64,000 bases of DNA from Parcubacteria group bacterium LiPW_15 (GTDB taxonomy: Bacteria; Patescibacteriota; Minisyncoccia; UBA6257; 2-01-FULL-56-20). The DNA is taken from NCBI GenBank assembly GCA_007375645.1, contig VMER01000001.1, forward strand, positions 209,211 to 273,210, read 5' to 3'. Position 1 is the stretch's first letter. Each line of letters opens with the position of its first letter. A program made the translations under genes and the position numbers. Under the pieces are notes generated by a model, which did not search any database, was not told the origin of the DNA, and was given only the letters and a program-made list of their open reading frames with translations. Shown here in pieces: positions 606 to 44,266 of the stretch.

Positions 606-2003
606 CTACTTTCTTGCCTCTTCGCGAAGAAGATCAATAAGCTTATCGGTCCTGACTCTTACCTGTTCCGCAGTGTCCCGGCTTCGAACCGTTACGGTTT
701 CGTCTTCAAGCGTTTGGAAATCGATAGTAATGCCGTAAGGGGTTCCTATCTCATCCTGCGAATAATAGCGCTTACCCACGTTTCCCCTATCGTCCCAGGC
801 GATCATAAATTCTTTTCTCAGTTCGTCATAAACTTCTTTGGCTTTTTCCACCAACTCAGGCTTGTTCTTTAAAAGCGGGAAAACCGCGGCTTTGTATGGA
901 GCGAGGTTGAACGGCAACTTTAAAACAGTGCGCTCTCCGTCTTCGTGGTAGGCCTCGCAAAGCACGGCCAAAAAAGTGCGGGTCAAGCCGAAGGAAGGCT
1001 CGATGCAGTGCGGAATGAATTTATTGCCCTCATCGTCGGTGTAATAAAGATCAGCGCCGGAATATTCGATGTGCTGTTTCAAGTCATAATCGGTACGATA
1101 GGCAAAGCCGTGAAGCTCGCCCCAGCCGAGGGACGGAAAATCGTATTCCACGTCATAAGTGTCTTTGGAGTAGAACGAACGCTCATTCTCGTCGTGGCGG
1201 CGCCACCGCATATTCTTATCGCTAAGCCCCAAGTCTTCGGCAAAGAATCTTTTTATCTCCGTCTGCCATTCCTCAAAGGGACGCTTCCAATCCTCTTCGT
1301 GTTTCGGAGGCGCGATGAAATATTCTATTTCCATCTGCTCGAATTCGCGGGTCCTGAAAATAAAATTTCCGGGAGTTATCTCATTCCTAAAAGCCTTGCC
1401 TACTTGGGCGATACCGAACGGCAGTTTCTTACGGCTCGTTTGGAGGACATTCTTAAAGTTTATGAAAATACCCTGAGCCGTCTCCCCTCTTAGATATGCC
1501 TTGGTTTTGGATTCATCCGTAGTTCCCACATAGGTTTCGAAAAGCAGGTTGAATTTCTTGGCTTCCGTCCAATCCGCTCCTCCGCAATTCGGACATTTTA
1601 TTTTCAAATCGTTAAGCTTGTTGCCGATATCTTCGAACTTTATCGCCGCAACCTCATTCACACCCAATTTTTCTTCCAAAAGTTTATCGCCCCGGTGACG
1701 GGTCTTACACTTTTTACAGTCGACCAAAGGATCGCTGAAATTGGAGACATGCCCAGAGGCTTCCCAAACCTTCGGGTTGGTGATAATCGCGGAATCCAGG
1801 CCCACTACATCGTCTCTCCGGTGCACAAAATTTTTCCACCAGACCTGGGCAATATTATTTTTGAGCTCGATACCCATCGGGCCGTAATCCCAGGAATTGG
1901 CGAAGCCGCCGTAAATTTCCGAACCCGGGAACACAAAACCGCGGCGCTTCGCCAAGCTTACTATCTTCTCCATTGATTCCGAACTGTTATTTGTATCGCT
2001 CAT
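606..2003 (-). CDS. glyQS: Glycine--tRNA ligase (class II, alpha2 type)
   Basis: 465 aa; class II aaRS motifs and GlyRS-like N-terminus (FPGSEIYGG, zinc-binding Cys cluster). Confidence 0.93.
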   Translation of the reverse strand: MSDTNNSSESMEKIVSLAKRRGFVFPGSEIYGGFANSWDYGPMGIELKNNIAQVWWKNFVHRRDDVVGLDSAIITNPKVWEASGHVSNFSDPLVDCKKCKTRHRGDKLLEEKLGVNEVAAIKFEDIGNKLNDLKIKCPNCGGADWTEAKKFNLLFETYVGTTDESKTKAYLRGETAQGIFINFKNVLQTSRKKLPFGIAQVGKAFRNEITPGNFIFRTREFEQMEIEYFIAPPKHEEDWKRPFEEWQTEIKRFFAEDLGLSDKNMRWRRHDENERSFYSKDTYDVEYDFPSLGWGELHGFAYRTDYDLKQHIEYSGADLYYTDDEGNKFIPHCIEPSFGLTRTFLAVLCEAYHEDGERTVLKLPFNLAPYKAAVFPLLKNKPELVEKAKEVYDELRKEFMIAWDDRGNVGKRYYSQDEIGTPYGITIDFQTLEDETVTVRSRDTAEQVRVRTDKLIDLLREEARK

Positions 2004-16996: not shown

Positions 16997-18646
16997 TTAT
17001 TTTGATTTTGATTTTATTTTCGACAAAGCGTATTCCAGGCTCGAACCAACTTTCTTTCCGGGATTAAAGATATTTTCCGGGTCAAATATCTTTTTTACTT
17101 CTTCAAAAAGACCGTAAACCTTTTCTCCATACATTTTCTTGAGATAGGGACTGCGTATCAATCCATCGTTATGCTCGGCGGTGATGGAGCCGTGGAATGT
17201 GAGAACAAGCGCATAAACCTTTTCCATAAGTTCCGGGATTATCCTTTTGGTTTCCGGATCATCCAGATTCATCAACGGAATTATGTGAAAATTGCCGTTT
17301 CCAATATGCCCCGCAATCGTATAAATCAGTTTCCCAGAATATGGTAGAAGTATAGCATCAAGTCGAGGTAAAAACTCGCTCAAATCTTCCGGACGGACAA
17401 CAAAATCATCGATAAACGGCGCAGTCTGCTTGTCTTTTATCCTATTCCTCAAAAGATTGAAGCTTTCTCGTCGCATGGTCCAATACTTATCTCCTTCGGC
17501 TTCGCTTTTGATGACCCTGATCGTTATCGGAAGTTTCGTGAGGTCATCCCGCATTCGAACCAGCCGCTCGTCCAATTTGCCCTCGTCGTTATCGGTAAGT
17601 TCCACCAGGAAAATCAATTTGGGCACACCGCCCCGCAAGACCATAAAAAACTCCGGCAGGAACTGAAGCGCGAGTTTCAAAAAATTCTTGGCTTTCATAA
17701 CCCGGATAATATCAAAAAAGAATCTGAGCGCGATCTTTAGAGTATTGTCGTCAAAGGACTCGATGCTTTCCGGGTGATAAGCGAGCGCCCGGCGCGCGAA
17801 TTCGCTGACCGGCTTCTGGTCTTTCAAAAACGCCACCAAAAGTTTTGAGTATTTCTTTTTGGGAATGAGTTTTAATCTGGCTTCGGTTATAAGCCCCAAA
17901 GTCCCCTGTGCCCCGCAAAAAAGCTTGGCCAGATTAAAATGCTCGCCGTCCCAGATATTCCAAAGCGCGTACCCTGCGGTATTCTTGCTGACCTTCGGTC
18001 TCGCATTTTCTATCGTTTCCAAGTTATCAAAAACAAGCGAACGCATTTTGGAATATATCTTCCCTTCAAAATTATTTTCCGCGGCCTTCGCTTCCAACTC
18101 CTTTCGGGCCAGGGGTCCGAAAGAATATTCTTCGCCGTCGGACAAAACCGCCTTAACCTCGGTAATATATTTTTCGGTTTGCCCATAGGCCAAAGTTTTT
18201 TCTCCGGCAGAATTATTGGCCACCATCCCCCCTAGGGCACAGATACTCTTGGAGGCCGGGTAAGACGGCAACATCACTCCAAGTTTGTCCGTCTCTTTTT
18301 CCAGATCTCGGTAAAATAATCCAGGCTCTACAACTGCTTCATCTTTGTTTAACCCGATAAGCTTGTTTAAGTGCGCGGTAAAATCCACCACGATGGATTC
18401 GCCCAATGGTCCGCCGCCCATGTCGGTTCCACCGGAACGCGCCGATATTTCCATTTTGATGTCCCCTGCCGCCCGGTGCGCGGAAACGAATTTAACGAGC
18501 GCTTTAAGCGCGTCTCTGGTTTTGGGCCGAACAATAACCTGCGGCTTTATTTCAAAAATAGATGCATCCCGCGCGTAAAACTCCCGGGACTTTTCGTCAT
18601 CCAATACTTCTCCGTCAAATATTTTTTCTATCGCCTCTTTAAGCAC
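16997..18646 (-). CDS. FAD-binding oxidoreductase (FAD-linked oxidase, GlcD/D-lactate dehydrogenase-like)
   Basis: 549 aa; FAD-binding PCMH domain followed by FAD-oxidase C-terminal domain. Confidence 0.85.
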   Translation of the reverse strand: MLKEAIEKIFDGEVLDDEKSREFYARDASIFEIKPQVIVRPKTRDALKALVKFVSAHRAAGDIKMEISARSGGTDMGGGPLGESIVVDFTAHLNKLIGLNKDEAVVEPGLFYRDLEKETDKLGVMLPSYPASKSICALGGMVANNSAGEKTLAYGQTEKYITEVKAVLSDGEEYSFGPLARKELEAKAAENNFEGKIYSKMRSLVFDNLETIENARPKVSKNTAGYALWNIWDGEHFNLAKLFCGAQGTLGLITEARLKLIPKKKYSKLLVAFLKDQKPVSEFARRALAYHPESIESFDDNTLKIALRFFFDIIRVMKAKNFLKLALQFLPEFFMVLRGGVPKLIFLVELTDNDEGKLDERLVRMRDDLTKLPITIRVIKSEAEGDKYWTMRRESFNLLRNRIKDKQTAPFIDDFVVRPEDLSEFLPRLDAILLPYSGKLIYTIAGHIGNGNFHIIPLMNLDDPETKRIIPELMEKVYALVLTFHGSITAEHNDGLIRSPYLKKMYGEKVYGLFEEVKKIFDPENIFNPGKKVGSSLEYALSKIKSKSK

Positions 18647-18742
18647 TGACTTAATTATACAAGTTCACAACAAAAAACCCGCCAGAGGTCCGATTGGACA
18701 TGGCGGGGATAACGAACTTTCGAAAGCAGTCGGAGAAAGAGC

Positions 18743-19333
18743 TTACGAAATGAGGTCGGCGAGTACCTTGCCCCAGTCCTTGCGCCTGTCCCCGCACAGA
18801 GGAGCCTGTACGAACACCGCCTTAGCGCCGTTAATCGTGAAGCTGGAAATCTCTCCGTTCGCAAAGTAGCTCGGGTTCAAGCACTCGATGGCCGCGATCA
18901 TGGCGTCTTCGTGGTGGTTTCCGTCCGTGACCATGGCCACGAACTTTGCCCCAAGGCTGGCCGCCTTGAGCGCAATCACGAAGCCGTAGGGAACCTCCTC
19001 TCCCGGTCTGTACACTCCCGGTCCGATCGTTTTCATGCTCACCGGCATCATCATGTCGGTGAGGACGACCTCAAACTCGAAAGGAATGACGGACTTGGTC
19101 TCGGATTCCCTTAACGCTTGCCAGTAGGCGCTCCACTCCCTGTCGGAATAATCCGGCTTCTCGGCGAAGCCAGCATCAATGAGGAGGCGCTGGACGTTGT
19201 CGGCATCGACTTTCTTTCTCATGATGTCCATAGCCTCATCGAACGACGAGATGATAGTGAGATCGTGGCCCTTGAGGGTCGCTCTAGCAGACTCGTGGTT
19301 GAATCGACTGTTGTCGATCACGAGAATCTTCAT
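18743..19333 (-). CDS. Receiver (REC)-like domain protein with C-terminal extension (high-GC cassette)
   Basis: Start at MKILVIDNS with AGGAG RBS 5 nt upstream; VVLTDMMMP resembles the REC phospho-acceptor region; own promoter TTGACC-17-TATACT at about 19455-19485 on the minus strand. Confidence 0.5.
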   Translation of the reverse strand: MKILVIDNSRFNHESARATLKGHDLTIISSFDEAMDIMRKKVDADNVQRLLIDAGFAEKPDYSDREWSAYWQALRESETKSVIPFEFEVVLTDMMMPVSMKTIGPGVYRPGEEVPYGFVIALKAASLGAKFVAMVTDGNHHEDAMIAAIECLNPSYFANGEISSFTINGAKAVFVQAPLCGDRRKDWGKVLADLIS

Positions 19334-19533
19334 CGCTTCTCCTGCCTTTCTTTTGAATGTGCGGTAAGCCTGTTTCAGCTTTGTGCGGAAAGTATAATAT
19401 ATTTTCACATTTTGGTCAAGTCATATAGTTTCGCTAAAAAGAAATGCCCCGACCATTTGGTCGGGGCATACAAAGAACTACAAGGAGGTTTCGCGGAACT
19501 TCTCCCAAAGCGGCAACTCACCGCGCATGAACA

Positions 19534-20724
19534 TCATCTTTTCCTGTTCAGAAGGAGTAGGGCGGAAATGACGAGTATCGCGCCAGAAGCCTGCCATGCG
19601 AAACCGATCGAAATATGTTTGGCAACATAGCCGCTTGCAACCAGTCCGATCATTCCTCCTACGTGATGGGAAATCGAGTCCAGAGAGATGAGCGTGGCGC
19701 GCTCCGCAGACGGAATATTGTTATTGAGATGCAGATTCTTCACCGGGCTGAAAAACCCGCGCGCGAACTCATGGAACATGAAGAATGCGATTGCCGGCCA
19801 GAAACTGCCGCAGAGCGCGGTTGCGAATATTCCGGCGCCGATCGCGATCTGGACCAGATTCAACGACTTTTCCGCGCAACCGATCTTTCTTATGAACCAA
19901 GGCGAGGCGGTTGCTCCAAGGATCGTCGCTATAGATATCCCCGCGAAGATAAACCCCAGATAGGTGTTCGAGGGAAGCAGATTTCCAAAGAATATCTGCC
20001 ACTGCATATTCGGCGCCTGCACGGCAACGAACTGCGCGAAGCCGGTAAGCAGAACGAACCTTACGACTCGATTGCCTCTGGCATATCGAACACTGGCCGA
20101 TACTGTTTCCGCCATCGCCCGCACATTCTTGGCAACAGAAAATGTTTTCCGCACAAAACCGTCTTCCTTCATATAAAAGACGGCAAGAATTCCCGCCAAG
20201 AATGAGGTGCTGCCCCCGACGATCCAAGGAAGCGAGGGATGCACGCTCGCCGCATATGCCCCGATCACGGAAGAGAAGATCGATACCGCGCTAAACAGCT
20301 GTTGGTCGCGGGTAAACACAATGTTTACCCCCTCGTCGCATCCTTGCTGCTTTAACCGATCAATGACCCAGGCCTGAAATGCGCCGCTCGCAAAAGTAGC
20401 GCCGACCGCGGAGATAACTTCCGCTAAGACAAATCCCCAGAATGTGTCGGTTATGGCGTATAGGAACATGCCGGCGGAGAACAACACGCAAGAAATGACG
20501 TACGATGCTTTCCGGCCGAACACGTCCGCGAAAGCCCCGGTCGGAATCTCGCAAACGAACAACGTAGAAAAGAAAAAGAAGTTCACCATGTTGATCTCTA
20601 GAAGATCCAAGCCCTTGGCCCTGAGGAATACCACATAGGTCGCGGCAATAAGTCCCATGCCAAAGGCAGAGACGGATTTGAGAATCAAGTAGTGACGGAT
20701 CGTCTGCCTAGCCTCGTGATTCAT
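19534..20724 (-). CDS. MFS transporter
   Basis: 396 aa, 12 TM, MFS signature. Confidence 0.85.
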   Translation of the reverse strand: MNHEARQTIRHYLILKSVSAFGMGLIAATYVVFLRAKGLDLLEINMVNFFFFSTLFVCEIPTGAFADVFGRKASYVISCVLFSAGMFLYAITDTFWGFVLAEVISAVGATFASGAFQAWVIDRLKQQGCDEGVNIVFTRDQQLFSAVSIFSSVIGAYAASVHPSLPWIVGGSTSFLAGILAVFYMKEDGFVRKTFSVAKNVRAMAETVSASVRYARGNRVVRFVLLTGFAQFVAVQAPNMQWQIFFGNLLPSNTYLGFIFAGISIATILGATASPWFIRKIGCAEKSLNLVQIAIGAGIFATALCGSFWPAIAFFMFHEFARGFFSPVKNLHLNNNIPSAERATLISLDSISHHVGGMIGLVASGYVAKHISIGFAWQASGAILVISALLLLNRKR

Positions 20725-21017
20725 AGCTTCCTCCTTTTCAAAGTGCTGTTGCTGAACAAAAAAACCTCGGCTTTTCGTTCAGCCGAGGTTTTTGAAAAAG
20801 TGTTTAGAAAATATGGTTATTTCCTGTTAAATACTTCAAGAATCGCGGCTGAATAAAAAGATTGGCCAAAAGAACCACAAAGGTAGACTTTCTGGTCGGT
20901 CGCAATATTCATATGACGATTCACTTTTACCATGGTTTGGATTTTAACATATACCAAAATACTGTCAAGTAGATAGCTCTCTTCGGTATACACCGTAGAT
21001 AACGTAAAAAATCTAAA

Positions 21018-21070
21018 TTGGTTATCCTCCCGATCTGTTGGCGCGCTTCCCCTTCTGTCGGTATTAAACA
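21018..21070. repeat. Degenerate direct duplicate of the typA 3' end (includes a stop-codon copy) on the far side of an inserted cassette
   Basis: Aligns at about 75-80% identity to 22145-22195 (ttatcc[c/t]ccc...gttggcgcgcttc...tcggt...aaa). Confidence 0.5.
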
Positions 21071-21119
21071 AAAAAACCCGACCTTTCGGTCGGGGCGCGA
21101 TTGCGAGAAAATAAACTGA

Positions 21120-22052
21120 TCAGAGAGGTTTGGCCTGAAGGAGCTTCTTAGCTTTCTCTCTCAGGTCTTCGGGGACGTCCTCATCATTGATGACGGCGAG
21201 GATATCCTCCTTATCGGGATCAAACTTCTTGAGCTTGTTGAAGGCTCCCCGCTTCAAGTCATCCGGAACGAACTTGTCCCGGAGAATGTCGAAAAGATAG
21301 CATTCGTCAAAATTGCGCTTTTTGAACTCCCTGAAGGCTCCCCGCTTCAGATCATCCGGAATGAACTGCCCACAGATGATGTCGAAGAGATCCTCCGTAT
21401 CGATATCACGCTTTTTGAACTCCCTGAAGGCTTTGCGTTTCAGATCATCCGGAATGAACTGTCCATAGATGATACCGAAGAAATAGCTCTCATAGGAGAA
21501 ACGAGGCTTCTTGAGCTCCTTAAGAGCTTCCCACTTCAAGTTATCCGGAACGGACCGTCCGCAGATAATGTTGAAGAGATTGTTTTCCCTAAGGTTGCAC
21601 TTCTTGAGCTCTTCGAAGGCTTCCAGTTTTAGATCATCAGGAACGGACTCTTCGTGGATGATATCGAGGAGACCGTTTATAATAATGCCACGCTTCTTGA
21701 GCTCCTCGAAGACTCGACGCTTCCAGGAAACATCGGGATGGTTCTGAAGGATCCAAAAAAGATCATCCGTCCGGAAGAACTGGAACATCTTGCCCCAGTT
21801 GGCGTCGAATCCCTCCTCGAGCTTCTTCCGGATCGGCTCCGGAAAGAGAGCGATATCCCAGAAACGGCGCTCTTCCTGTTCTCTCCCCACGCCTTGCTGG
21901 ATACCGTAGAAAGCACGAATTGCTCCGTGACCAAGGAAATCGATTCCTCGCGAGCTCTGAAGAACATCTTTCCCGTGCGAAGAGAAGACCTCCGCGTCGG
22001 TCAGGAAGAGAATCTCTCCCCGACATTCGATCCAGGAGACGAACTCACACAT
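21120..22052 (-). CDS. Tandem-repeat protein (about six 31-aa repeats, ...LFDIICGQFIPDDLKRGAFREFKKR...), high-GC cassette
   Basis: 310 aa; repeats visible in protein and as a 93-bp DNA periodicity at about 21150-21750; N-terminal 130 aa unique; own promoter and terminator (21073-21100). Confidence 0.65.
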   Translation of the reverse strand: MCEFVSWIECRGEILFLTDAEVFSSHGKDVLQSSRGIDFLGHGAIRAFYGIQQGVGREQEERRFWDIALFPEPIRKKLEEGFDANWGKMFQFFRTDDLFWILQNHPDVSWKRRVFEELKKRGIIINGLLDIIHEESVPDDLKLEAFEELKKCNLRENNLFNIICGRSVPDNLKWEALKELKKPRFSYESYFFGIIYGQFIPDDLKRKAFREFKKRDIDTEDLFDIICGQFIPDDLKRGAFREFKKRNFDECYLFDILRDKFVPDDLKRGAFNKLKKFDPDKEDILAVINDEDVPEDLREKAKKLLQAKPL

Positions 22053-22112
22053 GTCTCAAGACCCTCCCTTTCTCTCTATTCCTTCTTATTCGGTTGGAAT
22101 TGAACTGCCCGG

Positions 22113-22142
22113 ATTATACTAATTTTAGAGGAGGATGTCAAA
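22113..22142 (-). promoter_or_regulatory. Sigma70-like promoter (TTGACA-18-TATAAT) for the tandem-repeat protein gene
   Basis: Reverse complement reads ttgaca tcctcctctaaaattag tataat. Confidence 0.4.
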
Positions 22143-22146
22143 ACAA

Positions 22147-23967
22147 TTATCCCCCCGAACGGTTGGCGCGCTTCTCGTCTATTTCGGTCAAATAAATTTT
22201 GCGCATCCGGATGGATTTCGGGGTCACCTCCACCAATTCATCATCCCCGATATATTCCAAAGAATCTTCAAGCGATAAGGTGCGCGGAACTTTCAAAAAT
22301 TCCATTCCGCCCACGCCCTTGGAGCGCATGTTGGAAAGCTGTTTTTCTTTGCAAACGTTCACACGGATATCCATTGCTTTGGCGTTCTGGCCCACGATCT
22401 CTCCTTCGTAAACTTCAAGGCCAGGACTGATAAAAAGTTCTCCCCTGTCTTCGGAACCCATCATTCCGTAAGCGCGGGTGATACCGGACTCGGAAGCAAC
22501 CAGACTTCCGTGCGGGTTGGATTCAAAGTCCCCCTTATATTCTTCGTAATCTTCAAAAATGGAATTCATTATTCCCATTCCTTTGGTCTTGGTCATAAAT
22601 ATAGTGCGCAACCCGATGAGGCCCCGGGTCGGCACCAAAAAGTCCATATAGGCCATGCTGTTTTCCACGCGCATGTCTTTCATGTTGCCCTTACGCTTGC
22701 CCATCTCTTCGATGACCACGCCGGTCGCGTCTTCCGGAACCTCCACGGACAAAACTTCCATCGGTTCAAGTTTCTTTCCGTTCTTCTCGTGGAAAATAAC
22801 CTGCGGACGGGATACCTGGAATTCATAACCTTCCCGGCGCATCTTTTCGATAAGGATGGAAAGGTGGAGTTCGCCGCGTCCGGCAACTTCCCAAGTATCA
22901 AAGGTGTCGGTCGCGTTCACGCGCAAAGCCACGTCGGTATCTACTTCCTTGGCCAAACGCTCGGCCAAGTGCCTGGAGGTCACAAATTGGCCTTCCTTGC
23001 CCGCGAACGGAGAATTGTTAACCATAAAATTCATTTTCACGGTCGGCTCTTCAATATCTATGGTCGGAAGCGGCTGCGGATTGTCTTTGTCGGTGATAGT
23101 CTCGCCGATAGAAACATCCGTGATACCCGCGATAGCTACAATGTCTCCCGCGGTCGCTTCGTCCACATCCACACGCGCGAGTCCGTCAAAAAGCATCACG
23201 TTCGTGAGCGACGCTTTTTTGGTCACGCCGTCGCGGCCGATGTGCGCGACTTCTACGTTCTTTTTAAGAGTTCCGGAATAAAGCCTGCCGATGGCGATCT
23301 TGCCCTTATAGTTGTCGTAAAAAAGATTAACGGTGAGCATCTGAAGGGGCTTGGTCTCATCCACTACCGGAGACGGAATATATTTTATTATCGTATCGAA
23401 AACCGGACGGATATCCGTCATCTCCGAGAGCTCGTGCGCATAACCGGCTTTCCCTTGCGCCCCGGAAGCGTAAACCACCGGAAACTCCGCCTGCTCGTCG
23501 GAAGCGCCAAGCTCGATGAAAAGATCGAAAGTGCGCTCCAAGGCCCAGTTCGGACGGGCGCCGGGCTTATCAATTTTATTTATAACTACGATAACTTTGT
23601 GTCCGGCCTGAATAGCTTTTTTTAAAACGAATTTGGTCTGCGGCATTGGACCCTCTTTGGCATCCACCAAAAGCAAAATACCGTCCACCATGCGCATAAT
23701 GCGCTCCACTTCTCCGCCGAAATCGGCGTGGCCCGGGGTGTCCACTATATTTATCTTGATTCCCCCGTAGTGAACCGCGGCATTTTTGGAAAATATGGTG
23801 ATTCCCCGCTCTCTTTCGAGTTCGTTGGAATCCATAATGAGCGTGTCATCGGCGCCGGTCTTCAATTTAAAATCCGCGGACTGCTTCAAAAGAGCATCCA
23901 CGAGAGTGGTCTTGCCGTGGTCAACATGGGCAATTATTGCGATGTTTCGTATGTTTTTTGGGTCCAT
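22147..23967 (-). CDS. typA: Translational GTPase TypA/BipA
   Basis: G-domain [21 protein letters not shown]; EF-G-like domains; start chosen at [10 protein letters not shown] (the ORF track extends 22 codons upstream without a stop). Confidence 0.93.
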
Positions 23968-24245
23968 AGTAGTCTTGATTTTTAATTCGCGAACGTTGAC
24001 GGGAAGGGGGTCGGGGAAACGGGAGCCCGCCACAGCGGGCAGAAGCTATATAATCCATCCGCTAAAGCGAATGGTGGCCGTGTAGGAAACTTACTCTCAA
24101 TTGGCAGCGAGGAGAAAATAGGTATTAGATATTTTATCCGAGCGAACCAATTGACAGCTCGCTGTCTAACCGAGAGGTTGTGAGGGAGCGAAGCGACGTC
24201 TAGGTGCGCGATTATTGCGATATTTCGTATATTTTTGGGATCCAT
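23968..24245 (-). repeat. About 215-bp GC-rich structured insert bounded by an imperfect duplicate of the typA 5' end (ATGGATCCCAAAAATATACGAAATATCGCAATAATCGCGCAC)
   Basis: 24200-24245 on the minus strand is about 86% identical to the true typA start at 23925-23967; the insert contains several stem-loops (GGCAGCGAG...CTCGCTGTC, CCATCCGC-TAAA-GCGAATGG). Confidence 0.5.
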
Positions 24246-24316
24246 GTGATAAAAAAATGGCGCTTGGCCAGTTAGAACTTCATCTGTGCGTTAGATTATG
24301 CGCTATATTTGTCGAT

Positions 24317-24346
24317 TTGACAAGGGATAGCCGGAAAATCTATACT
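24317..24346 (+). promoter_or_regulatory. Sigma70-like promoter (TTGACA-18-TATACT)
   Basis: Sequence match; 57 nt upstream of the 24404 start. Confidence 0.4.
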
Positions 24347-24403
24347 TGCGCTCAGCAGACAAACACAATCCGACAAATTCCTGTCCGAAAGGAGAATGGG
24401 ACC

Positions 24404-24751
24404 ATGCCCAAGCGCATCCTGAACATTCTGAAACAGCGCAACGCGTTCCGGGCCCTGCTTCCCGAGGTTCCCGAAAAGAGATCGGGAAAGCTCCGAGTCT
24501 TCCTGAACAACGAGTTCGACACGACGAACCCGCTCGACAAGGAGGTCTTCGTCTCTTTGGTCGAGGAAGCCGCGAACCGCACCTTCGCGTCGAAAGAGCG
24601 CGAGAAGATCTTCGCCTTCCTGCGGCTCCGCGAAGGCTCGGGCGATATGGGCAAGAAGAAGCTCATCCGGTTCATCCGCGAGTCGATCTTCGCTTCCGAC
24701 AACACCGACACGATGTTCGGAAAGAACATCCTGCGCGGCATGCTTCCGTAA
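24404..24751 (+). CDS. Small hypothetical protein (115 aa, high GC)
   Basis: AAGGAG RBS 8 nt upstream of ATG (MPKRILNIL); the ORF track shows a longer 24215 form lacking an RBS. Confidence 0.5.
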   Translation: MPKRILNILKQRNAFRALLPEVPEKRSGKLRVFLNNEFDTTNPLDKEVFVSLVEEAANRTFASKEREKIFAFLRLREGSGDMGKKKLIRFIRESIFASDNTDTMFGKNILRGMLP

Positions 24752-30224: not shown

Positions 30225-32927
30225 ATGGAACTCCGCGCAGGAACGACGCTGGTCACAGCGTCCGATCTCGTGAGCATTCCGAACCAGTCTCCTCAATTCA
30301 GAGACTGGGCTTGGTATCAGCTAAACTTCGCCCCCGAGCACCTGGACGACATCGTTTCGGCCCTTCTTCAAAAGGATAAGGGCACGAATGTCCGGGAAGC
30401 CCTGGAATATCTGAATGACTTCCTCGGCGGACACCCCGCTACCGGCGAACGCCTGAACGCAAGCGACATCACCGGAGAGAATACCCAGAGCGCGTTGTTC
30501 AAAAAACTGCGCGTTCTGCTCGGCAAGGATTCCGGCGCGACTAACCCGGATGTTTATCGTTTTCTGGGACAAGTCGGCCATAAATTCATGCCGCTATTCC
30601 TCGGAAGTCAGCGGTTCCCAAGAACCGAATACAAGTTTGGCGGGCCGCTGGCCCAACGATCCCTGTTTCAGAAGCTGGTAGACGAGGAAGACGGACAAAA
30701 AATCCTCTTCCCGTTCCTTGCCGACCAACAGTTTGCCAAATCGGAAATCAAAGATCCGAACCGATCGCAACTGCGGCAGAGCTATGCTCTCTGGAAAAGG
30801 ATCGCGGAGAACGTCAAAGACCACAGCCTGACAGAACTGTACTCCAAACACGGACCAAAGCTCGACCGGCTGACCAGGATGTTGAAGCGAGAGTTTGCTC
30901 CCTATTCCTCGGAACTCGAGGCGCAAAGGGATGCAAAGTCCGAACTCGTGACTCTGAGCCTGATGAGCTGGGTGAGCGCCGTCGAACTCAAAGAACGGCA
31001 GCCCCGCATTTTCTTCACGGAGATACCGGTCCTCGACCGGCATCATCGGCTCGGAGCTTGGAGGATCGATGCCGCAGAAGTACGAACCATTGAAGGCAAA
31101 GCGCCGACGCCCAAACAAAGGGCTAAGCTCAGGGAACTCAGCCTCACTCGGTTCACTTCTGTTGGCCATCTGCTCCAATCGCTTATCTCCTTCTTTGGAG
31201 AAGAGCTGGAGCTCGGCATCTGGGACTGGAAGTTCGCGATTGGCGACGGCGCCCCAAAGCGCGTCATCGATCCGAGAACCATGGTTCAGGATGTTCTCGC
31301 GGAACACACGCGCCAGATACAGCGATATCTGATGCTCGGGAGCCTGGACTGCCACTTAACCGGGCGGCCCCGCGCGAAAACTCTCTGGCATGACGACTAT
31401 TTCTTGCGCGGAACTCTGGCATATTTCTTCCCGACGCATCGGCCGATACTCGAGCAAATAGTCATGACTCCGGAATTGCACAAACAGATCTTCGAAGAAG
31501 AAGTGTTGATGCGATTCGGGAGTGCGAAACAGCGCGCGAAGCTAAGAGAACTGACGAGCCAAGTAGTCGGCAACGTCTTCGCTCTCTGGAACGGAAACGG
31601 AAAGCCGAAGAACGGTTCCGCGCATAAGCCAACCCCGCAAGTATCGCTTTTTGAAGAGCCCTCCGACAAACCGCGTTCTGCTCTTCATTACGTTGAGCAG
31701 ATGCAAAAACCGATTTTCCTCGAAGGCTCGCACGGGCTTCTGGAGGTCGTGGGGCTCGGTGAGGGCGGACGCAAGCGTTACGAACTCCGCCTGGACACGA
31801 TGCTCAAACGGATCGAGGAAGGCGTGATCTCCGGACGAAATATCGGGCAGGGCTGGCTCATTTCCTGTCCGCATCCGGATCACGACGACTCTACGCCGTC
31901 TTGCGCGGTCTATCTCACCGGACACTTTCACTGCTTTGGATGCAAGAACTCCGGCAAGATCGCGGCTGGTTCAATTCCAAAAAATATTGAGCTTGTCCCC
32001 GATCTGCGGCAACAGCACGAGCGAATGCGCCAAGGCACAACGAATGCTCTGGTTCCGGAAAGACATCGCGAGGTCATGCGCACCGTTCAGGCCCATCTCT
32101 CCGCCAAGTTCAGAAACAGTCCGGCCGAACGATATCTTGCGCATGAGCGCCGTCTGGATCCGGAACTTGCCGCGTCTTTTGGCGCCGGATACGGCAGCAA
32201 CGAACTCATTTTGGATCTGCTCCAAGACGGCGTAAGCTACGAGGAGCTTATCCATTACGGTCTGGTGGGAATCTCACCAAAAATGAAACCCTCCAGCCTC
32301 TTGATTCGATCATTACTCCAGAAAGGCTATTCTTTAGAGAGCCTCGGCAGGGAGCTAAAAGTACCGGGCGGCAAAAACGTCTCGGGCCTCCCCTATCCTT
32401 CGCTCTCGAACCGGATAACCTTCCCACTCATGACCGAAAGCTGGGTAACCAGCGTGTACGGAAGGGCCATCTATGCTTGCGACAAGCAATTCTCGCATCG
32501 CAAGCTCACCATTAAGTACACGGGCGTTCCCCACGGCGCTTTCAATGTGGCCGCGCTTAACGCGCCCGGTAATGATCTCATCGTTACCGAAGGCGTGATG
32601 GACGCGCTCTCCCTGATCGAAGCCGGAGTGCCGAACACGCTCGCGCTCATCGGGGTTCAGAACACCGTAATCCTCGAAGCCCTGGAACGGTCGCGCAAGA
32701 AGCTTTGGATCGCGCTCGACATCGACGAAAATAAGTCGGGACAGAACGCGACCGCAAAGATAATCGAACGATTCAGGTCGCGCGGCGTGCCCGTGGGCGA
32801 CTTTACCGCCAAGTTCGCCGCAAGACTCACCGAACAGTACAAGGACTACAACGCCTGGTGGCAGGCATCCGGCCGTCATCTTTCTCTTAACGACCGGGCA
32901 GCTCTTCTCGCTCTTTCCGAAGCGTGA
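30225..32927 (+). CDS. DnaG-like primase-family protein: CHC2 zinc finger plus TOPRIM fused to an unknown 500-aa N-terminal domain (high-GC cassette)
   Basis: CPHPDHDDSTPSCAVYLTGHFHCFGCKNSG is a DnaG-type zinc ribbon; VTEGVMDALSL...ALDIDENKSG is TOPRIM; AAGGAGG RBS; hairpin terminator at about 32930-32960. Confidence 0.72.
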   Translation: MELRAGTTLVTASDLVSIPNQSPQFRDWAWYQLNFAPEHLDDIVSALLQKDKGTNVREALEYLNDFLGGHPATGERLNASDITGENTQSALFKKLRVLLGKDSGATNPDVYRFLGQVGHKFMPLFLGSQRFPRTEYKFGGPLAQRSLFQKLVDEEDGQKILFPFLADQQFAKSEIKDPNRSQLRQSYALWKRIAENVKDHSLTELYSKHGPKLDRLTRMLKREFAPYSSELEAQRDAKSELVTLSLMSWVSAVELKERQPRIFFTEIPVLDRHHRLGAWRIDAAEVRTIEGKAPTPKQRAKLRELSLTRFTSVGHLLQSLISFFGEELELGIWDWKFAIGDGAPKRVIDPRTMVQDVLAEHTRQIQRYLMLGSLDCHLTGRPRAKTLWHDDYFLRGTLAYFFPTHRPILEQIVMTPELHKQIFEEEVLMRFGSAKQRAKLRELTSQVVGNVFALWNGNGKPKNGSAHKPTPQVSLFEEPSDKPRSALHYVEQMQKPIFLEGSHGLLEVVGLGEGGRKRYELRLDTMLKRIEEGVISGRNIGQGWLISCPHPDHDDSTPSCAVYLTGHFHCFGCKNSGKIAAGSIPKNIELVPDLRQQHERMRQGTTNALVPERHREVMRTVQAHLSAKFRNSPAERYLAHERRLDPELAASFGAGYGSNELILDLLQDGVSYEELIHYGLVGISPKMKPSSLLIRSLLQKGYSLESLGRELKVPGGKNVSGLPYPSLSNRITFPLMTESWVTSVYGRAIYACDKQFSHRKLTIKYTGVPHGAFNVAALNAPGNDLIVTEGVMDALSLIEAGVPNTLALIGVQNTVILEALERSRKKLWIALDIDENKSGQNATAKIIERFRSRGVPVGDFTAKFAARLTEQYKDYNAWWQASGRHLSLNDRAALLALSEA

Positions 32928-35791: not shown

Positions 35792-35820
35792 TTGACATTA
35801 TGACTAAAACATTATACTAT
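35792..35820 (+). promoter_or_regulatory. Near-consensus sigma70 promoter TTGACA-17-TACTAT upstream of the collagen-like gene
   Basis: Sequence match; about 170 nt upstream of the 35993 start. Confidence 0.5.
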
Positions 35821-35992
35821 CTGTGTGCTAGAAAAAAGGGCGGATTTAGGTCAACCCTTATTGCACCTCGAAAAGAAAGCGAAAGGAGAGATGGAATGGT
35901 GAGTTGAGAATCTAACTTCAACCGCCGCTCTAAGTCCCTATCCGATCGTCTCAAACCCCGATCTGAAACGAATTCTACAAAAGGAGAAAAAA

Positions 35993-37642
35993 GTGAACAT
36001 CATCAAGAAGTTCACGGTTCTCGTGGCTCTCGCACTCCTCGTCTGCACCGGGACGGCCTACGCGGCCGATCCGCCGCGTCATCCCGTTCCCGTCGGTGAA
36101 CCCGAAGACGCCACAACCGTCATCGGGCACCAAGGGCGCACGGAGCTGCCCTTTCCGAACCCCGCCAACAACACCCTGTACAAGGCGCTGATCGGTGGGC
36201 CGTGTTGGCTCATCGACACCAGACTGGACTCGAAGTTCGACCCGCCGTACGGAAACAAGTCGGGTCAGCTCGGCGACTTCGTTTCCGGCGAGTCGAGGGC
36301 GTACCGCTTCGGCGGTCACCTGCTCGATCTGCCGCTCACGAACCCGTGCAACGACCTGATTCCGAGTTCCGGCGTCGTCGCCCTCAACCTGGAAGTCCAC
36401 ATCTACACGAACGGCCTCGTACCAGGCGGAGTGTTCTTCGAGAACACCCGCTTCGTCCCCGAACTGTGGTCGGCAACGGCGCAGGTCGGGCAGACAGCCT
36501 TCCTGATCTACGAGAAGGACAAGCTCAGCGACTTCATGCCCGGCTTGGTCCAGATCGGCCCCGCTTCGATATACGAACTCGGCGGCCAGTCCTTCCGGCT
36601 GAAGAACGTCGGGAACAGCATCGACGTCGCCGTGAAGATCAATGGCTACTTCACCGAGGACAAGACCGTCGGCAAGGGTGGTCCGGCCGGCAAGGACGGC
36701 GTGTCCTGTTCCGTCGTGCAGACCAACGACCTGTCCTATAAGATGACCTGCGGTGACAAGATCGTCGCCGAATGGTGGTCCGGCAAGGACGGCAAGCCCG
36801 GCCTCAGCGGCCCGCAGGGAGAACCCGGACCCGTTGGCCCGCAGGGGAAACCCGGACTGAACGGTGGCCCGGGACCTCAGGGCCCCATCGGACCCACGGG
36901 ACAGACCGGAGCTACCGGACCGCAGGGACCCATCGGCCCCACGGGAGCGACCGGACAGACCGGACCCATCGGACCGATCGGACCCACCGGTGCCACGGGA
37001 GCAGTCGGACCCATCGGACCGCAGGGACCCATCGGACCCACAGGGCAAACCGGAGCTACCGGACCCATCGGACCGATCGGACCCACCGGTGCCACGGGAG
37101 CAGTCGGACCCATCGGCCCCATCGGACCCACGGGAGCAACCGGACAGACTGGCCCCGCTGGCCCGACTGGCGCTACCGGACCCATCGGCCCCATCGGTGC
37201 CACCGGCCTGACCGGACCGCAGGGCCCTCAGGGAAATCCAGGACCACAGGGGCAGAAGGGTGACACCGGCAATACCGGTCCAGCGGGACCCATCGGCCTC
37301 ACTGGCCCGGGTGGCCCCGCTGGCCCAATCGGACCCATCGGCCCCGCGGGTCCGCAGGGACCCCCAGGCGTCTGCGCCTGCCCGATCTCGTCCGGCACCA
37401 TCGTCTTGAACTGCCCCAGCGCGCCGGAACCGGAAATCAACGGCCGCGAACCGAACTGCGTAACCTGCGCGAAGACGGTGAGCAACGCCGACATCAAGTC
37501 CTGGAGCAACGTCATCTGCTCCTACTCCGGCGGCCCTCTCGCGAGTGACGCGATTCCCTGTCGCGTATACAACGTCCAGAACGGCTCCTTCAAGGTGGAA
37601 GGAATGGCCGGACAGACCATCACCTGGATGGCCAAGAACTGA
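35993..37642 (+). CDS. Secreted collagen-like protein: signal peptide, about 240-aa globular domain, about 190 aa of G-X-Y triplets, Cys-rich C-terminal domain
   Basis: GTG start after AAGGAG; signal [16 protein letters not shown]; about 60 contiguous Gly-X-Y triplets ([16 protein letters not shown]...); 8 Cys in the C-terminal 90 aa; high GC. Confidence 0.8.
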
Positions 37643-37672
37643 TCTCCTTTCGTCGACAGTCATCGCTCTTTC

Positions 37673-37700
37673 GCGGGCCCTTCGGGGCCCGCCTTTTTTT
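37673..37700 (+). terminator. Intrinsic terminator GCGGGCCCTTCGGGGCCCGC plus T7
   Basis: Seen directly. Confidence 0.6.
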
Positions 37701-37793
37701 GACAAAATTATTTAAAACAGGCATCATTTTGCGAGCGAACGCAACTTGATTCCTGAACGGGCAATATCGCCCACAAACAGAAGGAGAGAAAAA

Positions 37794-38573
37794 GTGAACA
37801 TCATCCGGAGACTCGCGATCCTCATCGCTCTCGCACTCCTCGTCATCGCCGGAACCGGCTACGCAGAGGATCCGACCGCCAGCCCGAGCACGTACTTCAA
37901 CCTCCTGCCCCGGCAGAATCCGTTCGAAGTGCCGGCCCAGAACACGAAACTCAGCCTCGAGCTTCCGTTCGGAGATCGGCGCGAGGTCGTGTACGTTCCG
38001 ATGAAGGCGTGCGTCCTGACCGGTCCCAGTTCCAACTGGTTCGTCGACAAGGAAACCAGGGTCTACTTCGCGGGCAACTGCGGAGGAGTTCCCGAAACCG
38101 CCGAGCATCTGTTCATCCGGGTCACTGCCATCGGCGTGAACATCCAGGACTACGGCTGGGACTTTCCGGGTGCCGGTTTCTACACGACGACACCGAACAG
38201 CGCGTCCACCGAGACAGGCACCCTCTACGGCGGCTGGGTCCAGGCAATCGTTTTCGTGCAGAGAGCCGGACAAGTCGAAACCGGAGCAGCCATCGTGGAG
38301 CTCAAGCTGTTTCAGGCTTCGGGTTTCGCCATGCGCAAAGGATTCGAGCTCGAGCTCAAGTACGGCGAAGCCTACGCGATCGTGGAAGTCGTGGGCTACA
38401 CGTTGCCCAAGACAGCGAAATCGACCGGCCTCTCATGGAAAGGCGTCAGGCTCCCCCACGTGAAGTACACGGTGAACGACCTCGTGACGGACGAGAAGGG
38501 CCTCAGGGTCTGCGTCGGCGCGAACGAAAACGGCTGCACCATCTGGGAAACGATGGTGCCGATGAAATACTAG
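37794..38573 (+). CDS. Secreted hypothetical protein, paralogous leader to the collagen-like gene (no collagen region)
   Basis: GTG start after GAAGGAGAG; N-terminus VNIIRRLAILIALALLVIAGTGYAEDP versus [27 protein letters not shown] in the upstream gene. Confidence 0.62.
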   Translation: MNIIRRLAILIALALLVIAGTGYAEDPTASPSTYFNLLPRQNPFEVPAQNTKLSLELPFGDRREVVYVPMKACVLTGPSSNWFVDKETRVYFAGNCGGVPETAEHLFIRVTAIGVNIQDYGWDFPGAGFYTTTPNSASTETGTLYGGWVQAIVFVQRAGQVETGAAIVELKLFQASGFAMRKGFELELKYGEAYAIVEVVGYTLPKTAKSTGLSWKGVRLPHVKYTVNDLVTDEKGLRVCVGANENGCTIWETMVPMKY

Positions 38574-38593
38574 CTCTTTCGAACGAAACTCGA

Positions 38594-38623
38594 AGGGCCC
38601 CTCGCGGGGGGCCCTCTTTTTTT
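38594..38623. terminator. Bidirectional intrinsic terminator GGGCCCCTCGCGGGGGGCCC plus T-run
   Basis: Seen directly; overlaps the stop of 38622..39326. Confidence 0.55.
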
Positions 38624-41568: not shown

Positions 41569-41773
41569 CATAAAAAGATTACTGCGAAATACAACATTTA
41601 ATATCGGGCATTTGGAACCAAAACACAACAGTTTACTTGAATTTAGGCCTATTTACCTTGATTTTCCACCCCATTGACAATCCTAGGATATATGTGGTAT
41701 AATGTCCGAGCAAAGTTAAGTCCATCGAAAACGGCCGAAAGGCCATAAAATCACAAAGAAAGAAGGAAAGAAA

Positions 41774-42268
41774 GTGAAAGCGAACGAGATCCAGATCCGC
41801 ATCCCCGCCCTCCCGAAGCTCTCCGAACAGGATATCTGTTCTCGCTGGGGATTCACGAACGTCCTGAAGGACGATTCTCCGGAAGGAGAGGTGATCCTCA
41901 CCCTCACGACCGTCCTCCGGGACGGCGAGAACTCCCTCTCCGACAATGAGTACGAGACCCGCATCGAGAAGGTCGAGGGAAAGCTCGGACTCAGCCAGGC
42001 CCTCTGGCTCGTCGAACATCCGCTTCCGGCGTGTGGGTTCGAAGACGATGACCGCTGGATGCTCGAGCTCTTCATCTCCCCCGACCGGTACGCGACGAAG
42101 AAGATGCACATCTACTTCCCGGCAACGGTCGCGAGGAGCCTGATCAGCAACGGCAACCCGGAAGTTCCGTCTCTGTGCATGGATAGACACAACATGCTGC
42201 TGAGCCTGAGCTGGGATGTGTACGATCTCGATCCCAGCGATCCCATCGCCATCGCCAAGCCGGCCTGA
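41774..42268 (+). CDS. Hypothetical acidic protein (164 aa, high-GC cassette)
   Basis: GTG start after GAAGGAAAG; the plus strand has protein-like composition whereas the overlapping minus ORF is Arg/Ser-rich low complexity. Confidence 0.5.
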   Translation: MKANEIQIRIPALPKLSEQDICSRWGFTNVLKDDSPEGEVILTLTTVLRDGENSLSDNEYETRIEKVEGKLGLSQALWLVEHPLPACGFEDDDRWMLELFISPDRYATKKMHIYFPATVARSLISNGNPEVPSLCMDRHNMLLSLSWDVYDLDPSDPIAIAKPA

Positions 42269-42360
42269 CCCATCTTTCTCCCTCAGCACCTTCGCCCCGT
42301 ATGAAGCAAAAACTTCGCGGGGCGTCACCAAATCGTGAAAGCTCGAAAGAAGGAGAACCA

Positions 42361-42516
42361 TATGCTCGAATTCCTGTACGTTTACGCGACGATCGGGATT
42401 GCCGCCTTTGGCGGATTCTTGGTCAAGGAGAAGCAGAACAGGACGCTCGGAGTCATCTGCCTCAGCGCCGCCAGCGCCCTGGGCGTGGTGCTCGTGGTCG
42501 CCCTCGTACAGTAGTT
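42361..42516 (+). CDS. Small hydrophobic peptide (51 aa, predicted 2 TM)
   Basis: AAGGAG RBS 7 nt upstream of ATG; MLEFLYVYATIGIAAFGGFLVKEKQNRTLGVICLSAASALGVVLVVALVQ; flanked by 23-bp direct repeats; strong terminator downstream (42540-42585). Confidence 0.38.
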
Positions 42517-42577
42517 CCTGCCCCGCCCCAGCACCTTCGCCCCGTATGAAGTTTAGAAACTTCAGCGGGGCGCTTTT

Positions 42578-42835
42578 TTATTTTAAATATCCCTCCGCTC
42601 TGAGCAGTGCCCGCTTCTCACCCAAATTTCCGTTATACCCACCAAGCTTTCCGCTCGAAAGGATTACCCTATGACAGGGCACGTTCTTGTCATGATTATT
42701 TTTCATGATCATCCCCACGGCTCTTGCCGCTCTAAAGTTCCCGGCCTTCGCCGCCACCTGCTTGTAACTCAAAACCTTTCCTCGCGGAATCTTTTTCACT
42801 ACTTCCAAAACCTTTTTTCTAAAATTGTCTTCCAT
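42578..42835 (-). CDS. MGMT-family protein (methylated-DNA-protein-cysteine methyltransferase DNA-binding/active-site domain only)
   Basis: PCHRV active-site motif; 85 aa. Confidence 0.75.
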   Translation of the reverse strand: MEDNFRKKVLEVVKKIPRGKVLSYKQVAAKAGNFRAARAVGMIMKNNHDKNVPCHRVILSSGKLGGYNGNLGEKRALLRAEGYLK

Positions 42836-42843
42836 CTGTTTTT

Positions 42844-42895
42844 TTAAATCCCGTTAGAGGTAGGAAACTTTTAGTTTCCGCAAGCTCTAACCGGG
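42844..42895. promoter_or_regulatory. About 52-bp conserved palindromic element with GAAAC-N5-GTTTC core, in the 5' region of the MGMT gene
   Basis: About 85% identical to 44214..44266; nested inverted repeats TAGAG...CTCTA around GGAAACTTTTAGTTTCC. Confidence 0.45.
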
Positions 42896-42907
42896 ACTAC
42901 TTACGAC

Positions 42908-44210: not shown

Positions 44211-44213
44211 TTT

Positions 44214-44266
44214 TTTAATCCCGCTAGAGGTAGGAAACTTTCAGTTTCCGCGAACTCTAAGCGGAG
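44214..44266. promoter_or_regulatory. Second copy of the GAAAC-N5-GTTTC palindromic element, in the 5' region of nth
   Basis: AATCCCGCTAGAGGTAGGAAACTTTCAGTTTCCGCGAACTCTAAGCGGAGC. Confidence 0.45.

Follow-up and report, generated by a model that had tools for sequence, protein, structure and literature searches.

typA, the gene for the translational GTPase TypA/BipA, lies intact in a 64-kb stretch of DNA (hereafter "the window") from the metagenome-assembled genome LiPW_15, a Parcubacteria bacterium of the candidate phyla radiation (CPR), and a partial copy of each of its two ends stands beside it, beyond a piece of inserted DNA. It is probable, in our view, that within a recombining Parcubacteria species complex two separate insertions have hit the ends of typA, the gene staying whole each time and the displaced copies of its ends (here called stubs) being left behind. 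At the 3′ end the insert is a cassette carrying one gene, and its stub was most likely produced by an ordinary process, anchor-based (homology-facilitated) illegitimate recombination. At the 5′ end it is a small, structured and previously undescribed element. Far more tentative is the idea that this element represents a class of undescribed tiny CPR mobile elements, whose insertion is directed or templated by pairing with the target or proceeds by template switching; equally tentative is the idea that one and the same act of insertion copies the upstream part of the target both directly and invertedly, rebuilding the gene under a new leader. CPR (Patescibacteria) genomes are tiny and dense, and little is known of how foreign DNA enters them while sparing essential genes; the typA locus displays two entry routes side by side, each with natural empty-site controls. 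The features concerned, all on the minus strand of the window, are as follows.

24295..24323 (-), promoter-like site TTGTCA-17-CATAAT upstream of the 5′ stub, the presumed typA promoter, predicted by consensus scan only
24198..24245 (-), 5′ stub, a copy of typA codons 1-16 joined to the native upstream region (alignment, 0/2000 shuffles)
24001..24197 (-), core of the 5′ element in its long form, 197 nt, starting GTCGCTTCGCTCCCTCACAACC... and ending ...CCCGACCCCCTTCCC (copies in relatives)
23983..24000 (-), anti-target GTCAACGTTCGCGAATTA, the target copied in inverted form and able to pair with typA nt 35-48 (fixed-register matches)
23968..23982 (-), tail of the element, between the stop of an upstream open reading frame (uORF; stop at 23982-23984) and the real ATG (sequence)
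23982..24245 (-), the uORF, 87 codons from the stub ATG through the whole element, with its stop 14 nt before the typA ATG (list of open reading frames, ORFs)
22147..23967 (-), typA, intact, 606 aa, ATG at 23967 (ORF list)
21071..22146 (-), inserted cassette, with a promoter (22141..22113), a repeat-protein gene (21120..22052) and a terminator (21094..21077)
21022..21070 (-), 3′ stub, the displaced original last 14-16 codons of typA with the stop, frameshifted further upstream (alignment, shuffles)
20934..21021 (-), ancestral intergenic region downstream of typA, including the promoter of the small gene (20968..20941) (colinearity with L015)
20817..20933 (-), small conserved ORF, 38 aa (MVKVNRHMNIATDQK...), the direct downstream neighbour of typA in L015

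Two duplicated ends and their empty sites

The start of typA (23920-23967) recurs at 24198-24245 with 39 of 48 nt identical, the best local stretch reaching 35/41 (85%); the score is 52, to be compared with a mean of 14.5 and a maximum of 28 after shuffling. At the other end of the gene, 22147-22188 recurs at 21022-21062 with 34 of 42 positions identical and one gap, around a core of 25/28 (89%) that includes the stop codon. Here the score is 42 and the shuffled maximum 30, and a weaker similarity may extend to about 21070, where it meets the T-run of the terminator. Since neither score was reached in any of 2000 shuffles, both of the duplications to which the first-pass annotation had drawn attention are real. 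An assembly artefact is ruled out as well, because an independent Logan assembly (L005, 18,032 nt) is 100% identical and reproduces the arrangement base for base.

The loci used for comparison were contigs bearing typA proteins 78-99% identical to that of the window, and further ones drawn from the same 90% cluster. The GTP_EFTU and BipA_C domains are present in homologues of 69-99% identity, and the nearest relatives in the homologue search are labelled Candidatus Liptonbacteria. In the complex of close relatives, whose typA genes are ~90% identical at the nucleotide level, all combinations of the two inserts are present:

L015: 5′ insert absent, 3′ cassette absent; the typA stop is followed by the intergenic region and then by the small conserved gene
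L001: 5′ insert absent, 3′ cassette present
L013/L014 (= L008): 5′ insert present in its long form, 3′ cassette absent; typA is followed by a terminator and then by a flavin adenine dinucleotide (FAD) oxidase gene
L011/L012: 5′ insert present in its short form, 3′ cassette present, without 3′ stub
Window: 5′ insert present in its long form, 3′ cassette present, 3′ stub present

Each insert has therefore been gained or lost recently; neither is present in L002 and L006, which are more distant. The proposal that the duplications are footprints of insertion is borne out by these empty sites, which concern both ends in L015, the 5′ end in L001 and the 3′ end in L013/L014, so that relatives with uninterrupted typA ends do exist. 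As for the opposite possibility, that the duplicated segments are a regulatory motif standing beside typA in cassette-free genomes as well, no typA-end duplication was ever found beside typA in the insert-free genomes among the fetched relatives.

Upstream of the 5′ stub, the window is colinear with the element-free L001 and L015, in which the same sequence runs straight into typA; these two loci are thus natural empty sites for the 5′ insert. In the window the differences between stub and real copy are synonymous, apart from V15L at the junction. Across the typA copies they amount to 25 synonymous and 5 non-synonymous codon differences, all 5 of the latter in the junction codons 14-15 (H14Q is found in 4 of 5 stubs); of random substitutions, ~21% would be expected to be synonymous. 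The N-terminus is specific to the host clade in stub and real copy alike, with MDPKNIRN in one clade and MNPEKLRN in the other, and the duplicated DNA is consequently of host origin, not imported from another clade.

The 3′ stub differs from the real copy only synonymously over its last nine codons and the stop (CGT/AGA, GGG/GGA). It also matches the typA 3′ end of L015 (score 31, 0/2000), and it is bracketed by the T7 run of the terminator and a T6 run. Beyond it, 21021..20934 keeps colinearity with L015 from the typA stop codon there as far as the small gene (score 67, 0/2000), which identifies the 3′ stub as the original typA end, still in its ancestral setting. What follows the real typA stop in the window bears no significant similarity to this ancestral intergenic region, and so gives no sign of a duplication reaching past the stop. 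The small 38-aa ORF, whose product has no Pfam match, comes with a promoter of its own and a bidirectional terminator (20760-20793), all within 20726-20968 (minus strand); its nucleotide identity is 81-90% in L004, L011, L012, and L015.

Between the two 3′ copies lies the cassette, composed, as first described, of a promoter, a repeat-protein gene, and a terminator. The promoter is of sigma-70 type and scores 12/12, with perfect -35 and -10 elements; the gene (21120..22052, minus strand) encodes 310 aa with five to six tandem repeats of 31 residues, or 93 nt (..PDDLKRGAFREFKKR..), and the protein has no Pfam match. The cassette is found in L001, L011, and L012 at about 76% identity, and is absent from L015, L013, L014, L002, and L006; its gene evolves faster than typA (76% vs. 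90% nucleotide identity to L011). In L011/L012 it follows typA with the same continuity, without a stub and with unrelated sequence after the terminator. A stub of the former neighbor Sua5 or of typA was looked for in L011 and none was found, and it could not be demonstrated that the cassette of L011 is a clean insertion into the ancestral intergenic region. Between L001 and L011, identity rises to 97-100% over the typA 3′ end and the cassette promoter, from ~90% elsewhere, which shows recent recombination exactly at this point.

Two further observations concern this region. The promoter and 5′ leader (window 22100-22141, minus strand) are shared with L003 (8946-9000), where a different gene lies downstream (score 23, 7/2000); from the sequence, this suggests a common promoter module behind which cassettes swap genes. 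The gap between typA and the FAD oxidase gene is also a hotspot of gene gain. In the ancestral order, seen when window 16997-20724 is compared with L002, L006, and L013, the FAD oxidase gene comes directly after typA; the window has 3.5 kb extra between them, with the cassette, the small gene, a 221-aa gene, and an MFS transporter gene, whose nearest relative is only 59% identical and whose homologue contexts are uninformative.

The 5′ element

The sequence between the 5′ stub and the typA ATG (23968-24197) is 230 nt long, and its GC content of 0.50 equals that of the surrounding genome. It had previously been described as a GC-rich, structured spacer of 215 bp (24034-24199) lying next to inserted high-GC DNA. 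Its extent and composition have to be corrected accordingly, its structure is real though moderate (fold z = -2.5), and the "spacer" is the inserted element itself. The core of this element begins with GTCGCTTCGCTCCCTCACAACCTCTCGG and ends with CCCGACCCCyyTCyC. It measures exactly 80 nt in four lineages (short form: L011/L012, L007, L009, and L010) and 197 nt in two (long form: the window and L008/L013/L014), the long form having two hairpin-rich insertions of 117 nt in total. Beyond the core come ~33-49 nt made of the inverted target copy and the tail; the tails differ in length among lineages and are partly alignable. Conservation of the core is high: its first 43 bases are invariant in the short-form copies, its left end, the 33 nt that precede the first long-form insertion, is the same in all of the copies, and the two long forms differ at 10 of 197 positions, their typA genes differing by 9-14%. 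The typA genes of all the element's hosts are only ~71-91% identical at the nucleotide level.

Pattern scans of public collections and a protein search with the stub ORF have brought the number of known copies to seven, in six lineages, the genome scan and the metagenome scan contributing one and two extra loci. Five typA lineages (the window, L008/L013/L014, L011/L012, L007, and L009) have the element at the identical point, after codon 16 (D16; GTTGAC^CAC), in the P-loop coding region. In L007, whose typA protein is only 80% identical, a stub search revealed the same stub-element arrangement, and the element there shares its ends with that of the window. There is one copy in the 64-kb window and one in each fetched locus. 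With a covariance model derived from the short forms, every copy is recovered and no further one appears in the window or the fetched loci; a pattern search allowing three mismatches finds none in the window or its relatives, and viral contigs yielded none. No Rfam family matches the element, either at the gathering threshold in the window, at E<=10 on 23850-24420 or at E<=1 on L007-L010 (the matches in these runs are tRNAs and chance-level hits only), and tRNA and tmRNA scans find nothing at the element. We are left with an 80-nt core that is conserved across hosts whose typA differs by up to 29% of its nucleotides, and that lands in the most conserved part of a GTPase gene. The gene survives the insertion because its start, the target, is duplicated.

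The order of parts is common to all copies of the element. A direct target copy comes first and the core second; then follow the last 14-18 bases of the target in inverted form, a tail that varies, the target copied directly once more, and what remains of the target. In each copy of the element the bases right after the core are the reverse complement of those right before it. Read in a fixed register, this inverted copy matches at 10-13 of 14 positions in the typA copies and at 12 of 14 in L010 (p about 1e-4 to 1e-7 over the copies, about 3e-6 for L010). L010 carries the same core in an unrelated, apparently non-coding, structured sequence (CGGAC^CAC), and it is against this target of its own that its inverted copy matches. 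A direct duplication spans the element there as well (22/25 identical, score 35, 0/2000 shuffles). The length of the duplication is 48 nt in typA, exactly from the ATG to codon 16, and ~25-29 nt in L010. The left junctions all fall after GAC, namely after GTTGAC in typA, CGGAC in L010, and TTTAGAC at the cassette (in the L015 frame), three cases in which the placement of the junction is partly free; across the copies of the element, the motif at this junction reads TTGAC, TTGAT, or CGGAC.

The structure proposed for the short forms contains 88% standard pairs, compared with 47% or less when the partners are slid, and in seven of its pairs both partners have changed, five of these pairs belonging to the flank stem and two to an internal hairpin. 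A hairpin of the long form likewise shows compensatory changes between the window (CCATTCGC/GCGGATGG) and L008 (CCGTCCGC/GCGGACGG), and a U-G pair in it marks the typA-sense strand as the folded one. In 6/6 copies the inverted copy pairs more strongly with the real copy of typA (nt 35-48) than with the stub, the duplex energies in L007 being -19.1 and -9.1 kcal/mol, respectively; the helix between inverted copy and typA is formed in the minimum-free-energy folds of 5/6. By pairing alternatively with the stub or with the real coding start, the inverted copy could regulate the gene. Comparison of the window and L008 elements shows as many non-synonymous as synonymous changes, in addition to the compensatory ones in the hairpin, so the constraint bears on nucleic-acid structure and not on a protein. 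A coding element was rejected as a candidate: the uORF peptide has no Pfam match, and a search of 5.8 billion proteins gave it one relative only, itself encoded by a copy of the element. An intron, a translational hop, and a ribozyme were rejected too, given that the downstream copy has its own ATG and that no model matches; the short core is also G-poor, with little pairing capacity.

The frame that opens at the stub ATG remains open through the element in all five typA copies, and stops 14, 27, 14, 5, and 6 nt before the real ATG. The 117 nt by which the two forms differ are a multiple of three, and the long-form insertions add 39 codons without a stop. The promoter-like region is conserved in L001, L011, and L015; because it is the sole such site and lies upstream of the stub, the stub ATG keeps its native start context. 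Transcription would then start at the native promoter. Ribosomes, beginning at the stub ATG, would read the open frame across the element and, in doing so, open the helix that typA nt 35-48 form with the inverted copy; having terminated 5-27 nt short of the real ATG, they would begin again at the typA start. This geometry suggests termination-reinitiation, that is, translational coupling. A small hairpin that leads into a U-run (GGC..GCC ATTTTTT; window 24246-24290, minus strand) sits just upstream of the typA start codon in all lineages, at equivalent positions in L001-L004, L006, L008, L011, and L015; it may be a conserved leader or an attenuator-like feature.

Two observations were made on contigs that carry the element. 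L010, the contig with the second target, contains a degenerate copy of the first 47 nt of tRNA-Met (1964-2050 vs. 2071-2143; score 49, 0/2000), with a 32-nt hairpin inserted in the D-loop region. It lies 107 nt upstream of the intact gene for tRNA-Met, and is a further case of a 5′ stub placed before an intact gene. A second short conserved repeat (CTGCTG..CTTAGGTATTTCCTC.CTC.CGCTCGGTCAC) is found in L009 (431-490, plus strand) and in L010 (about 1480-1540, plus strand), two unrelated contigs, and in both it is close to the element or to typA.

Routes of insertion

For the 3′ end, the route that we favor is acquisition of the cassette from a related strain, by a homologous crossover within typA combined with illegitimate joining at a T-run. 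This would have pushed the original ~50-nt end of typA, together with the intergenic region and the small gene, to the far side of the cassette. Displaced 3′ ends resulting from such recombination have been described for type VI secretion system (T6SS) and Rhs arrays (PMC5361080). The 3′ case is a useful marker of how promoter-gene-terminator cassettes spread behind conserved genes.

For the 5′ end, a small, non-coding and non-autonomous element would have inserted after typA codon 16, with the target directly duplicated upstream and repeated, inverted and in register, after the core. Of the two direct copies, the downstream one would rebuild a complete typA, and the upstream one would remain as a stub on the native promoter and start. 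The duplications themselves would arise during insertion, through template switching, snap-back synthesis, or widely staggered cuts, with a machinery that presumably acts in trans and is not encoded nearby; the copy borne by typA would later have spread among related typA alleles by ordinary homologous recombination. Target-primed insertion, which the first-pass annotation had also considered, is possible for this element, as is template switching, and if the inverted copy is a guide or the trace of a template switch, the insertion mechanism would be one not yet described in bacteria, and the locus would also illustrate a simple origin of new uORF-controlled leaders. On the far more tentative reading of a class of elements that rebuild their target genes, the element would amount to a self-repairing, portable module of leader and uORF.

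Several points weigh against this account of the two ends. No insertion enzyme was found among the 37 ORFs of the window. The seven copies in six lineages represent just two targets, and the argument drawn from two targets has a single contig, L010, as its basis. In all typA copies the first base of the duplication is precisely that of the ATG, even in L011, the youngest, where stub and real copy show 3/48 differences between unrelated flanks. Such exactness is not predicted by a mechanism with variable stagger, and would fit a single origin or some sensing of the gene or transcript start; a leaderless typA mRNA was tried as its cause, and the promoter scan gives this no support. The 25:5 excess of synonymous changes in the stubs is not expected from neutral decay, and would have to come from recurrent recombination with functional alleles or from selection acting on the peptide of the stub. 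The uORF geometry, from which translational coupling is predicted, is also reached by 2-12% of shuffled inserts for each copy, a modest result obtained on copies that are not independent of one another. At the 3′ end, an ancestral target-site duplication of ~55-66 nt, later lost in L011, comes a close second. In the window, the terminator T-run is joined to a T-rich position of typA at about -55; the joints differ between lineages, and in a single genome a long target-site duplication would look alike. The ~80% identity of stub and gene at the 3′ end is about what neutral decay since the split would leave.

Might both stubs be mere by-products of recombination with DNA from related strains, the 5′ element having once been the typA leader of a donor? 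Homology-facilitated illegitimate recombination, or a Campbell-type single crossover through the ~50-nt gene end, would then suffice, with no mechanism specific to an element. Such processes are documented elsewhere (PMC5361080, PMC3240628), and the L001/L011 patch reveals active recombination at this very locus; the 3′ junctions differ between lineages, as independent illegitimate joins would, and the purely synonymous differences between stub and real copy resemble those between two functional alleles. This explanation is nevertheless unlikely. The core boundary GAC^GTCGCTTCGC is joined to two unrelated targets, each with its own direct and in-register inverted copy, and such repeated, matched copies are not to be expected from random illegitimate joins; moreover, one left junction is common to all typA lineages.

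Less credit still can be given to an RNA-templated insertion, in which a structured RNA would pair through a guide-like 3′ segment with the target or its transcript, be copied by a reverse transcriptase provided in trans, and be fixed in the chromosome as cDNA. The layout could be read as successive template switches with a snap-back, the length of the duplication varies with the target (48 vs. ~25-29 nt), as in target-primed reverse transcription, and the G-U pairs point to the typA-sense strand as the folded one. Against this, no reverse transcriptase was seen in the window, no 3′ tail signature is present, and the predicted promoter lies ~40 nt upstream of the ATG, so that the start of the duplication is not the predicted 5′ end of the transcript. 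A vertically inherited, non-mobile cis-regulatory leader of typA, acting as a switch and lost from the element-free lineages through its 48-nt repeats, is improbable to the same degree. The core is indeed strongly conserved relative to host genes, both alternative pairings are possible in every copy, and loss by recombination between the repeats would restore a perfect gene, as in L001 and L015. The distribution is patchy, however, within a complex of 90% identity, the same core sits at a locus other than typA, no Rfam family matches, and the stubs mirror clade-specific residues, for which vertical descent would need repeated gene conversion.

Classical site-specific integration, as suggested by the first-pass annotation, finds no support and is very improbable. 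It would imply elements that bring their own replacement end for typA, a tyrosine or serine recombinase, and an attL/attR pair left in place after the loss of the integrase. The geometry of repeat, insert, and repeat at both ends of a restored gene speaks for it, as do the short stretches of identity within the repeats, of 13 nt in the 3′ and 11 nt in the 5′ pair, and the variable presence of the inserts among relatives. Yet Pfam scans of the 37 window ORFs reveal no integrase, resolvase, transposase, or reverse transcriptase domain, in agreement with the original remark that the window lacks an integrase or transposase, and the inserts measure only 0.11-0.28 kb and 1.1 kb. At the second target the same core has a different, target-matched flank. 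An element-borne gene end would be predicted to travel with the element, and the 5′ copies follow the host clade in both stub and gene; a constant attL/attR pair is contradicted by L011/L012, where the cassette stands beside typA without a 3′ stub and with a different right junction. The 3′ stub is thus not an obligate att-type footprint, and is accounted for no less well by recombination that is homologous on one side and illegitimate on the other. Finally, chance similarity or a chimeric assembly, conceivable for short repeats in a metagenome-assembled source, can be set aside, in view of the shuffling results, the identical independent assembly, and the recurrence of the same architecture in samples from several unrelated projects.

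The rest of the window supplied some observations of its own. The only replication-type oddity among the tested ORFs is a 900-aa primase-like protein (30225-32927, plus strand), with a DnaG-type zinc ribbon (residues 538-578), a Toprim domain (785-883), and ~500 preceding residues without family match; it may be an extended form of the cell's own primase or else a replication protein of a mobile element. A check of other cassette borders for the same junction motif had been proposed, and self-comparison of the window found no other gene-end duplications at high-GC cassettes: what repeats remain belong to paralogous signal peptides, to terminators present in duplicate, or to a hairpin between genes. 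This hairpin repeat, 63 nt long and 86% identical between its two copies (42840-42902 and 44210-44272), lies between core genes and shows compensatory stem changes (cccgTtagag...ctctaaCcggg vs. cccgCtagag...ctctaaGcgg). A high-GC cassette on the opposite strand (41675-42580, plus strand) has a consensus promoter, a 164-aa gene without Pfam match, and a duplicated terminator hairpin (42281-42324 / 42526-42572) that brackets an ORF for a 50-aa membrane peptide. A GC-rich island (35793-38620, plus strand; GC up to 0.70) carries two adjacent genes for secreted proteins, the first of them a collagen-like G-x-y repeat protein; the two share a ribosome-binding site and signal peptide (35977-36086 vs. 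37777-37886, 77% identical).

Comparison with known systems

Integrative elements that leave attL and attR at the ends of tRNA, tmRNA, or protein genes resemble the typA locus in that a degenerate copy of the gene end lies beyond the insert and the gene is intact. They differ in that here no integrase is found in the window ORFs, the inserts are tiny, the 5′ copy is of host type, and the cassette also occurs without a stub. A parallel for the 3′ end is the homology-facilitated illegitimate recombination proposed for T6SS effector-immunity and Rhs or contact-dependent inhibition (CDI) loci (PMC5361080). There too a conserved gene would serve as anchor, new DNA come to lie behind it, and the old 3′ end be shifted downstream, with junctions that would involve microhomology (T-runs in the present case) and are specific to the lineage. 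As a difference, the anchor here is the gene of a housekeeping GTPase, only ~50 nt are displaced, and the event is one predicted from sequence, in uncultured bacteria.

The 5′ element is reminiscent of MITEs (miniature transposable elements with inverted repeats) and Rickettsia palindromic elements, being small (0.1-0.25 kb), non-coding, and structured, with conserved ends, a variable middle, a presence that varies among close relatives, and one frame that stays open. Rickettsia palindromic elements insert in frame inside genes. Here, on the contrary, the gene is restarted rather than read through, the element itself lacks terminal inverted repeats, 25-48 nt of target are duplicated instead of 2-10 nt, an inverted copy of the target is added, and one copy was seen per locus or window. 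A MITE proper was rejected on two counts: the core ends GTCGCTTCGC... and ...CCCCTTCCC share no inverted repeat, the sole inverted repeat being target sequence, and the duplication (48 nt in typA, 25-29 nt in L010) is not a fixed 2-10 bp.

Pairing-guided elements, such as group II introns with their exon- and intron-binding sites (EBS-IBS), IS200/IS605 with its internal guides, and IS110 with its bridge RNA, likewise possess a segment that is complementary to the bases just upstream of the insertion and differs with the target. The typA element, unlike them, matches no intron, ribozyme, or bridge-RNA model in Rfam, and no associated protein gene was found; nor, to our knowledge, do group II introns, IS200/IS605, or IS110 duplicate 25-48 nt of their target. 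The complementary segment may be a product of the insertion and not its guide. A palindrome-associated element derived from IS200/IS605 was considered on account of the two hairpins of the short form and of the left junctions after TTGAC, TTGAT, or CGGAC; it was discarded since a duplication of 25-48 nt is present and the right hairpin is missing from the long form. A diversity-generating retroelement was discarded as well: the repeats differ by C/T, A/C, G/C, and T/A, which is not adenine-specific, and no reverse transcriptase was found in the window.

Lastly, at the level of expression, the arrangement recalls uORFs that work by termination and reinitiation: in all copies the stop lies 5-27 nt before the main start, and the uORF crosses a helix formed with the first codons of the main ORF. 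What sets the typA uORF apart from known ones is that it begins with a copy of the first 14-16 codons of the main protein itself and was created by an insertion, with its coupling to typA as a prediction.

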